A stretch of DNA of 64,000 bases, taken from NCBI RefSeq assembly GCF_030013595.1, contig NZ_CP122768.1, one strand, 5' to 3'. This stretch comes from Escherichia coli. Its GTDB lineage: Bacteria; Pseudomonadota; Gammaproteobacteria; Enterobacterales; Enterobacteriaceae. Positions 14,043-15,015 of the stretch are shown piece after piece (positions within the stretch are counted from its first letter, which is position 1; the number at the start of each line of letters is the position of its first letter). The translations under genes and the position numbers were made by a program. The notes below the pieces were generated by a model. That model saw only the letters and a list, made by a program, of their open reading frames with translations. It did no database searches and was not told the origin of the DNA.

Positions 14043-14365
14043 ACTTTCAGGCCTCTCTCATGTAACCAGTGGGCTGCACGCAACCTGGCGTTCTCCTCAC
14101 CGGCAAGCAGTGCGCGGATGATACCGACCGCCTCGCTGTCGTCGTCCTTCACCGCGGTATGAAGCGTGATCCCCCGGGCCACGCCACGCTTTATCGTGAT
14201 GACGCCTTTTTTCTCCAGTGCGCGAAGATGCTCTACCGCTGCATTCACTGAACGGTATCCCAGCATGGTTGCCACCTCCTGATTGGTTGGCGGGAAGCCA
14301 CGTTCTTTCTGGTAAGAAATCAGCATATCCAGCACCTGCTGCTGGCATTGAGTTAACGTCGTCAT
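14039..14365 (-). CDS. LexA-type winged-helix DNA-binding protein (nin region)
   Basis: 108 aa; LTQCQQQVLDMLISYQKERGFPPTNQEVATMLGYRSVNAAVEHLRALEKKGVI resembles the LexA N-terminal domain; ATGA overlap with neighbours. Confidence 0.5.
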   Translation of the reverse strand: MTTLTQCQQQVLDMLISYQKERGFPPTNQEVATMLGYRSVNAAVEHLRALEKKGVITIKRGVARGITLHTAVKDDDSEAVGIIRALLAGEENARLRAAHWLHERGLKV

Positions 14366-15015
14366 GCCGCCATCTCCCTGACCAGCTTTTCCGCCTGCAG
14401 GCGAACCTGCGCCAGAAACGCCTCACCACATGCCTCAAGTTCATCGCGCCCGATGTAGCTGATTGCCGGTCCCTTCCAGGTCTTGTCGAAAACAGCAATA
14501 GCACCAGCGAAGAAAGCGCCTGTCGGCACCTGCTTCTCATCCTTCGGGATAAACCAGGCAGGCAGTTCAAAACCAATACGCCCGCGAATAAAAGCAATAT
14601 GATCTGCATCTTCCGGCCACCACACTTCGCTGGTGGCAGCTTTGATCAGGAAAACATAGCGCCCGCCCTTATCACGCATGGCACTGGCATGCTTCATGAT
14701 GTAACGCATGCCGGTGATGTATTGCCCCTCATGCTGACTGGCGCGGCTGTATGGGGGATTTCCAAAGGCAGCACCTTTAAGCTCCGCAAGGCGTTCTGAC
14801 CAGTCATGCGCCAGCGCGTTGTCTTCCGCCGTGTAATACGCAGCACATTTGGCGTTATCACCGTCAGTGAACAGATCCAGAACAAACGGACCAAACAGGG
14901 TGTTAATTCCCCAGAAAATGTTGTCCGGCGTGCGCCACTGATCGCCCACTTCCTTCAGTTCATGGGCTGGTTTGTTCCGCAGTTCCACCAGCTCCTGGCA
15001 ATATTTATTACTCAT
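14362..15015 (-). CDS. Phage N6-adenine DNA methyltransferase (orphan Dam-like)
   Basis: FGNPPYS catalytic motif; start reassigned to ATG at 15015 (TAATG overlap with the upstream stop). Confidence 0.85.
   Translation of the reverse strand: MSNKYCQELVELRNKPAHELKEVGDQWRTPDNIFWGINTLFGPFVLDLFTDGDNAKCAAYYTAEDNALAHDWSERLAELKGAAFGNPPYSRASQHEGQYITGMRYIMKHASAMRDKGGRYVFLIKAATSEVWWPEDADHIAFIRGRIGFELPAWFIPKDEKQVPTGAFFAGAIAVFDKTWKGPAISYIGRDELEACGEAFLAQVRLQAEKLVREMAA

Follow-up and report, generated by a model that had tools for sequence, protein, structure and literature searches.

An orphan N6-adenine methyltransferase of the PF05869 family in the early operon of an Escherichia coli lambdoid prophage

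What does a solitary adenine methyltransferase do in the early operon of a resident prophage: which nucleic acid does it modify, when is it made, and what does the phage gain from it? The question is raised by a 64,000-nucleotide stretch of an Escherichia coli genome (contig NZ_CP122768.1; hereafter the window), in which positions 1 to ~25,400 belong to a lambdoid prophage whose insertion site lies between prfC and yjjG and the sequence beyond ~25,400 is chromosome. The reading that we prefer, with a probability of about 0.7, is that the gene product is a small N6-adenine DNA methyltransferase, dependent on SAM and made in the lytic phase, which methylates phage DNA before packaging. The features discussed below are collected in Table 1.

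Table 1 Coordinates of the methyltransferase gene, its motifs and its surroundings in the window
Feature	Position	Strand	Basis or remark
Methyltransferase CDS, PF05869 / TIGR01712	14362..15015	-	ORF; Pfam, NCBIfam, PHROG, PADLOC matches
Motif IV N86-P-P-Y89, amino-methyltransferase catalytic loop	14749..14760	-	Codons AAT CCC CCA TAC
Motif I-like V45-LDLFTDGD-N54, first Rossmann strand	14854..14883	-	Conservation + model strand 44-50
Family signature D25-Q-W-R-T-P30 near N-terminus	14926..14943	-	Conservation among homologs
ATGA junction: methyltransferase stop overlaps LexA-N-like start	14362..14365	-	
TAATG junction: PerC/YfdN stop and methyltransferase ATG, one base in common	15013..15017	-	
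Antiterminator Q	11459..11836	-	
DUF968	11839..12834	-	
KilA-N	12836..13633	-	
RusA Holliday-junction resolvase, next in operon after LexA-N-like gene	13653..14042	-	PF05866 E=6.1e-15
108-aa winged-helix protein, LexA DNA-binding domain only, downstream	14039..14365	-	PF01726 E=2.9e-19
PerC/YfdN-family, 164 aa, upstream neighbour	15015..15509	-	PF06069 E=8.8e-10
O-like replication protein	15506..16324	-	
Rha/Ash	16542..17693	-	
cII/YmfL	17690..18241	-	
cro-like gene	18234..18494	-	ORF; same genes annotated in relatives
cI-like XRE repressor	18592..19284	+	ORF; same genes annotated in relatives
Immunity region (cro-like + cI-like genes)	18234..19284	.	Divergent gene pair
Prophage integrase	23983..25206		Adjoins yjjG
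mrr	46991..47905		Type IV
mcrBC	55473..57916		Type IV

The ORF list gave an intact minus-strand reading frame for 217 residues (MSNKYCQELV...LVREMAA), which opens with an ATG at 15015 and closes with a TGA whose last base is 14362. An in-frame GTG at 15048 would lengthen the protein by 11 residues; the RefSeq relatives use the ATG start and not the upstream GTG. The protein matched PF05869 (Dam) with E=9.8e-46 (155.9 bits vs a cut-off of 28.1; profile positions 3-167 of 169) and the equivalog TIGR01712 (phage N-6-adenine-methyltransferase) with 255.5 bits vs a cut-off of 97.05 (positions 1-165 of 165). In addition, it matched PHROG 111, 'DNA methyltransferase', and the PADLOC MTase_II (Type II methyltransferase) model (6e-157). 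On these profile scores, the assignment to PF05869/TIGR01712 is not due to chance. The first-pass annotation had called an NPPY-type N6-adenine methyltransferase at this position, and the ORF, both family matches and the N86-P-P-Y89 motif bear it out. Its label 'Dam-like' stands as far as the Pfam name of PF05869 goes and fails for the family of E. coli Dam, whose domain, PF02086, gave no match in the protein at E<=0.01; E. coli Dam itself is a distant structural match at 10% identity.

Conservation was assessed in an alignment of 25 homologs, down to ~25% identity. The (D/N)PPY motif IV required by PF05869 and TIGR01712 is present, with P87, P88, Y89 and S90 invariant and N86 at least 90% conserved. 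In the motif I-like segment, D47 and N54 are invariant and F49 is at least 90% conserved; V45-N54 is presumed, on the basis of the class I methyltransferase fold, to bind SAM. The N-terminal family signature has D25, W27 and T29 invariant and P30 at least 90% conserved, and A67, G145-R146, P152 and G197 complete the invariant set.

The AlphaFold model of the protein (mean pLDDT 95.1, pTM 0.90) showed a Rossmann core, with the DLF segment on the first strand and NPPY after the strand formed by residues 82-85, followed by a C-terminal sheet and a long last helix. The protein therefore has the class I Rossmann SAM-dependent fold with a SAM-binding first strand by which PF05869/TIGR01712 is defined. 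Some 30 residues separate motif I (45-54) from motif IV (86-89); the alignment and the model together suggest a compact enzyme with a gamma-like linear motif order and without a discrete recognition domain. Sequence searches with the single protein and with the 25-sequence profile returned no significant solved structure. By fold, the best matches of the model were all N6-adenine methyltransferases, the closest being the RNA cap methyltransferase PCIF1 at 12% identity, and the METTL3/14 structures matched poorly (Foldseek probability <0.1).

The gene is common. It occurs at 2493 places in 2101 of 5426 complete E. coli genomes, with at least 80% of its length present in 1724 of the 5426, and several E. 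coli strains have annotated 'phage N-6-adenine-methyltransferase' genes that are 100% identical to it in DNA. A 1.6-kb stretch comprising the gene and its neighbours is found in 50 phage records, including SfV, mEp460 and Stx2c phages. The dN/dS ratio was 0.08 against the SfV gene and 0.11 against that of Hafnia phage yong2 (70-71% amino-acid identity). Because dN/dS is ~0.1 and the databases hold thousands of copies with exactly 217 residues, we conclude from these comparisons that the gene is maintained by strong purifying selection, and the same two results exclude a decaying or dead remnant. About one third of complete E. coli genomes carry a near-identical copy, so the observation is genuine without being novel: the gene is an already known, ordinary phage gene, correctly labelled under a curated equivalog annotation and named dam in SfV, and it has little weight as a discovery.

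The prophage ORFs scanned within the window (the left part of the prophage lies outside it) include no restriction endonuclease, and none of the nine prophage proteins scanned matched a PADLOC restriction system. Within the windowed part of the prophage there is thus no restriction endonuclease either adjacent to the gene or in the same element, in agreement with the original description of an orphan lacking a nuclease partner. The nearby nucleases are the RusA junction resolvase and DUF968, which gave a sub-threshold HNH match (25.9 bits vs 26.6). We considered DUF968/HNH as a hidden restriction partner and rejected it, as DUF968 DNA occurs at 5397 places in 3725 E. coli genomes, more than twice as frequently as the methyltransferase; because DUF968 commonly exists without the methyltransferase, the two are not an obligate pair. 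Nor did the prophage ORFs scanned in the window include a second methyltransferase. In relatives of this prophage, a further gene, for a 'DNA-methyltransferase' of 350 aa, lies between Q and the lysis genes; its length and position make the M.EcoGII type probable. This slot is occupied in the window by AraC-family and DUF6731 genes instead.

The methyltransferase gene sits in the rightward early (replication/nin) operon, as first annotated, and the gene order from the cro-like gene to antiterminator Q bears this out. By analogy with lambdoid gene order, the early rightward promoter is presumed to lie between the cro-like and cI-like genes. The operon also includes a 74-aa ORF on the minus strand between the Rha/Ash and O-like genes. 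The nin-region position of the methyltransferase is kept in other lambdoid phages, and a PerC/YfdN neighbour is also found beside homologs in E. coli, Atlantibacter and Hafnia phage relatives. Downstream of homologs, a LexA-N-like gene is also found in Atlantibacter and Enterobacter prophages; Hafnia phage yong2 has no such gene next to its methyltransferase.

Both ends of the gene overlap its neighbours, and the TAATG overlap suggests translational coupling between PerC/YfdN and the methyltransferase. A G5 run lies just upstream of the methyltransferase start (a C-run at 15020-15024 on the plus strand), and one extra G in it would produce PerC-methyltransferase fusions such as those of 379-382 aa found in databases. 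On the minus strand, a simple consensus scan of 13652 to 19144 gave no promoter-like site. In SfV, -35/-10 signals have been annotated for dam inside the upstream gene; their equivalents in the window are poor hexamers, and we rejected an own promoter of this kind on the poor match and on the scan without a candidate. Given its position inside the early operon and its translational linkage to its neighbours, the methyltransferase would be repressed in the lysogen and expressed after induction. Gene order and the consensus scan agree with this, indicating a gene that is likely silent in the lysogen and made after derepression.

Two kinds of association bear on the substrate. Some cluster representatives that are close relatives, at 67-75% identity, have a fused C5-cytosine DNA methylase domain; other representatives have a fused PAPS-reductase domain. 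In an Atlantibacter prophage, a gene for a 660-aa C5 DNA methylase lies directly between the methyltransferase homolog and the LexA-like gene. Because relatives are fused or adjacent to C5-cytosine DNA methylases, these associations, together with what is reported for members of the family, point to DNA as the substrate. Two observations of a different kind count against a DNA substrate: the closest solved structure acts on the RNA cap, and an unrelated Stx-prophage enzyme acts on 16S rRNA (PMC10810198).

The lytic-phase DNA methyltransferase that we prefer would work as follows, with substrate, timing and benefit being the parts that we infer. In the lysogen, the enzyme would most likely be repressed along with the rightward early operon. 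Upon induction or infection, the operon would be transcribed and the methyltransferase made together with the replication proteins. Using SAM, it would then methylate adenines of newly replicated phage DNA prior to packaging, so that the progeny DNA would exit fully adenine-methylated. Such DNA could be shielded against methylation-sensitive restriction in the next host, and Dam-type methylation could be kept up during fast replication. Protection and keeping up with methylation are roles assigned to phage orphan methyltransferases (PMC12707154, PMC5778455). Anti-restriction and epigenetic regulation are standard roles for a family of the PF05869 type and are candidate roles for the window gene.

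The first-pass annotation had pointed to Type I and Type IV systems of the host, encoded in the same window, as a setting for protection. The genes are there: mrr, hsdR, hsdM and mcrBC are present at about 47-58 kb of the window. The Type I part does not hold, however, as hsdS is broken. As read from the frame breaks in the window, the gene is split over three frames: the first recognition domain runs into a stop after 226 aa, and the second domain and the conserved C-terminus are each in a further frame of their own. The PGAP annotation of a closely related genome has two partial pseudogenes for hsdS. Even if it were intact, a host Type I system would itself modify a resident prophage. Type IV enzymes cut modified DNA, and methylation is no protection against Mrr or McrBC; against Mrr, adenine methylation could at most be a liability. 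The broken hsdS and the preference of the Type IV enzymes for modified DNA thus remove these host systems as support for a protective role.

The same annotation had proposed that a lysogen without an additional m6A motif would refute its claim. Such a result would not count against the function of the enzyme. Since the gene is likely silent and host Dam would mask a GATC target, the methylome of a lysogen is probably uninformative, and activity of this kind is easily overlooked there. In other strains, prophage methyltransferases were silent in the lysogenic state (PMC5778455, PMC4659465), M.EcoGI and M.EcoGII among them (PMC5778455).

We then turn to the target sequence. T1 Dam and Stx-phage Dam belong to the same Pfam family, PF05869, as the window protein; the literature lists M.EcoT1Dam and M.EcoVT2Dam as GATC-specific, and a T1 Dam relative (35% identical) methylates GATC with marked off-target activity (PMC4996451, PMC6602927). 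GATC specificity is not transferable to the window protein, because its identity is 25% to T1 Dam and 31% to Stx-phage Dam, the alignments cover ~140 residues (about 6-153), and the window protein has insertions, namely ~12 residues after NPPYS and a longer loop after the GRI motif. The Salmonella phage Chi enzyme is closer, at 45% identity. The accessible literature yielded no experiments on the window-type subfamily and no measured specificity for it, SfV Dam and YfdM included. The observed/expected ratio of GATC was 0.82 in the prophage vs 0.77 in the host part of the window, which is no difference, and the other 4-mer palindromes likewise showed no difference between the two parts that would hint at a target. 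In an E. coli host that is dam+, an enzyme for GATC would seem superfluous. By analogy with the listed, distant family members, a GATC or relaxed GATC-like target is our best guess. Determining the target of so widespread a subfamily would make the annotation of E. coli prophages more complete, and the specificity would reveal whether phages export DNA methylated more broadly than the host's own pattern.

If the target is of the GATC type, the enzyme may keep fast-replicating phage DNA fully methylated for the sake of the phage life cycle and not for anti-restriction. Such methylation could benefit packaging, the control of replication or the avoidance of mismatch repair, as has been described for P1 Dmt and argued for T1. 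The operon position among replication and recombination/resolution genes such as RusA fits this role, as do the GATC listings of T1 Dam and VT2 Dam (PMC4996451, PMC6602927) and the requirement of P1 packaging for Dam methylation at pac (PMC12707154). On the other hand, many similar lambdoid prophages are without the gene, and other methyltransferases replace or join it, a pattern more in keeping with an accessory role than with a core step of the life cycle; and the prophage sequence itself carries no GATC signal. A life-cycle role is plausible and compatible with anti-restriction, and we consider it clearly the less probable account when taken in place of anti-restriction.

A further possibility is that the enzyme does not stand alone and needs the LexA-N-like or PerC-like neighbour to pick its target, possibly an RNA. 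We regard such a requirement as very improbable, and the kindred idea of an enzyme steered by both coupled proteins, even acting on RNA, as hardly more probable. The idea draws on the lack of an own recognition domain in the methyltransferase, on the coupled winged-helix gene downstream in three genera (Escherichia, Atlantibacter, Enterobacter), on PCIF1, an RNA methyltransferase, as the top structural match, and on a precedent, a prophage MT-A70 enzyme whose methylation of 16S rRNA requires PNB-2 (PMC10810198). The coupling is not general, however: yong2, with 71% identity, has no LexA-like gene beside its methyltransferase, and the phage Chi (45%), T1 and Stx-phage enzymes have quite different neighbours. 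Occasional database fusions of the methyltransferase with either neighbour also speak for a partner, but they resemble single-base or deletion accidents, of which an extra G in the G5 run is an example. As for RNA, T1 and VT2 family members are listed as GATC DNA methyltransferases (PMC4996451, PMC6602927), and the relatives fused to C5 DNA methylases favour a DNA substrate. If a partner did select the target, a common prophage module would be a targeted, and not a bulk, modification system.

Finally, an epigenetic regulator that is active in the lysogen and alters host or prophage expression, as the putative -35/-10 signals that the SfV authors placed for dam inside the upstream gene would permit and as the reported effect of phage-borne M.EcoGIII on the expression of many host genes (as cited in PMC6602927) would illustrate, is most unlikely, as the window equivalent of these signals matches the promoter consensus poorly, the scan found no site upstream, the operon is under repressor control and the gene shares bases with the genes on either side, and prophage methyltransferases elsewhere are silent in lysogens (PMC5778455, PMC4659465).

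The preferred lytic-phase DNA methyltransferase can be placed among known enzymes. The eukaryotic mRNA cap m6Am enzyme PCIF1/CAPAM acts on RNA, has additional helical and WW domains, and resembles the window protein in fold only. M.EcoGV and M.EcoPA8orf6770P are MT-A70 proteins with a DPPW motif, encoded near the integrase, whereas the window protein belongs to PF05869, has NPPY and gave no MT-A70 match. M.EcoPA8orf6770P is a Stx-prophage enzyme annotated as GATC, with a winged-helix neighbour, and methylates 16S rRNA with its partner PNB-2 (PMC10810198). A GATC result for M.EcoGV was set aside as inapplicable to the window enzyme, M.EcoGV being highly similar to the MT-A70-family M.EcoPA8orf6770P (PMC10810198). 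M.EcoGI and M.EcoGII, non-specific enzymes of the beta class (PF01555), are also orphan adenine methyltransferases of lambdoid prophages and are presumed to act at induction (PMC5778455). The window protein lacks the features of that class (PF01555, an N-terminal DPPY and a C-terminal FxGxG): it had no PF01555 match, and its motifs come in the opposite order.

E. coli Dam and T4 Dam belong to the alpha class (PF02086) and are 9-10% identical to the window protein, with ~106-109 residues aligning. In the alpha class, the recognition domain lies between the SAM-binding and catalytic parts. The window protein has neither PF02086 nor such an interposed domain. Two further candidates for comparison were discarded: the EC958 enzyme M.EcoMIV has PF02086 and is hence irrelevant to the window enzyme, and the non-specific methyltransferases Hia5 and Hin1523 are relatives of alpha-class Dam and belong to another family (PMC3299994).

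M.EcoT1Dam and M.EcoVT2Dam (VT2-Sa/933W type) share PF05869, the motif order and the orphan status with the window protein, and the Stx-phage type Dam also occupies the same nin-region position. They differ from it in that the window protein has the insertions after NPPYS and after GRI and the long C-terminal helix, and on these sequence differences its specificity may differ from theirs. The closest known system is SfV Dam, which is 98% identical, has the same neighbours and is encoded by a gene annotated dam; WP_001442792.1 is identical to the window protein in amino-acid sequence. K-12 YfdM, from the cryptic prophage CPS-53, is 99% identical over 89 residues and consists of the first 91 residues only, breaking off directly behind NPPY; the window copy has the full length. 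By sequence, the window protein and SfV Dam are essentially one protein, of which YfdM is the shortened form.

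The methyltransferase start codon overlaps the stop codon of the upstream PerC/YfdN gene (TAATG), and a G5 run on the minus strand immediately precedes this junction (run and junction within window 15013-15025). Proteins of 379-382 aa in which PerC and the methyltransferase are fused make up at least 15 database protein clusters, and one example (P0013, with the junction '...FVGGLMSNKY') was found on 12 contigs. These fusions arise from one extra G, which may reflect a sequencing error, a sporadic mutation or slippage. YfdM of E. coli K-12 comprises only the N-terminal 89 residues of the methyltransferase, stopping directly past the NPPY motif, and is devoid of more than half of the methyltransferase fold. 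The truncated protein fits uneasily with a preprint in which yfdM is reported to be required for the propagation of a T1-like phage, a requirement ascribed there to methylase activity (bioRxiv 10.1101/413146).

As for the host genes, hsdS, the specificity gene of the Type I system, is fragmented over three reading frames, while the adjoining hsdR and hsdM are both intact. In a closely related genome, hsdS was annotated by PGAP as two partial pseudogenes. Judging from the broken hsdS and these pseudogene calls, the host Type I system may be inactive. The large ORF directly adjoining mcrC in the immigration control region, annotated at 6342 bp in a relative, carries 'DEAD/DEAH box helicase' as its sole annotation, and is possibly a defence gene.

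Coordinates of the features in the window and in related prophage loci
Feature	Location	Strand	Remarks
K-12 yfdM	L014 (K-12 yfdM locus) 6113-6388		
Methyltransferase homolog with C-terminal extension	L009 (Atlantibacter prophage) 4001-4858		
Methyltransferase homolog with C-terminal extension	L011 (Enterobacter prophage) 4001-4969		
C5-cytosine methylase	L009 4855-6837		660 aa; slot after the methyltransferase homolog
AraC-family regulator	9027..9878	minus	
DUF6731 protein	10275..10988	plus	
AIPR/AbiU-type abortive-infection gene	22026-23819	minus	Pfam AIPR 5.6e-43; PADLOC AbiU 2.8e-111
hsdS, whole region	53392-54800		
hsdS fragment	53392..54072		226-aa ORF; reading-frame inspection
hsdS fragment	53997..54551		184-aa ORF; reading-frame inspection
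hsdS conserved C-terminus	within 53392-54800		third frame
Large helicase ORF	57973-63975	minus	2000 aa in the window listing; DEAD, Helicase_C, MZB (MrfA Zn-binding) domains

Within the prophage, the integrase is adjoined by a 597-aa abortive-infection gene of the AIPR/AbiU type. Between the antiterminator gene Q and the lysis genes, prophage relatives harbor a 350-aa gene annotated as 'DNA-methyltransferase', whereas the prophage in the window instead carries, at 9027-11435, the AraC-family and DUF6731 genes and a 147-aa ORF that has no family assignment.

The slot following the methyltransferase gathers further DNA-modification genes, such as the C5-cytosine methylase gene of an Atlantibacter prophage, and in some single proteins (P0126, P0127, P0133, P0130 and P0141) the methyltransferase domain is fused with a domain of the C5 methylase or the PAPS-reductase type. 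Homologs with ~80% identity also bear variable C-terminal extensions (including P0058, P0066, P0050 and P0093), in which Pfam gave no matches. The E. coli methyltransferase ends where the conserved helix ends, whereas these Atlantibacter, Enterobacter and Cronobacter homologs run on for another 68-130 residues.
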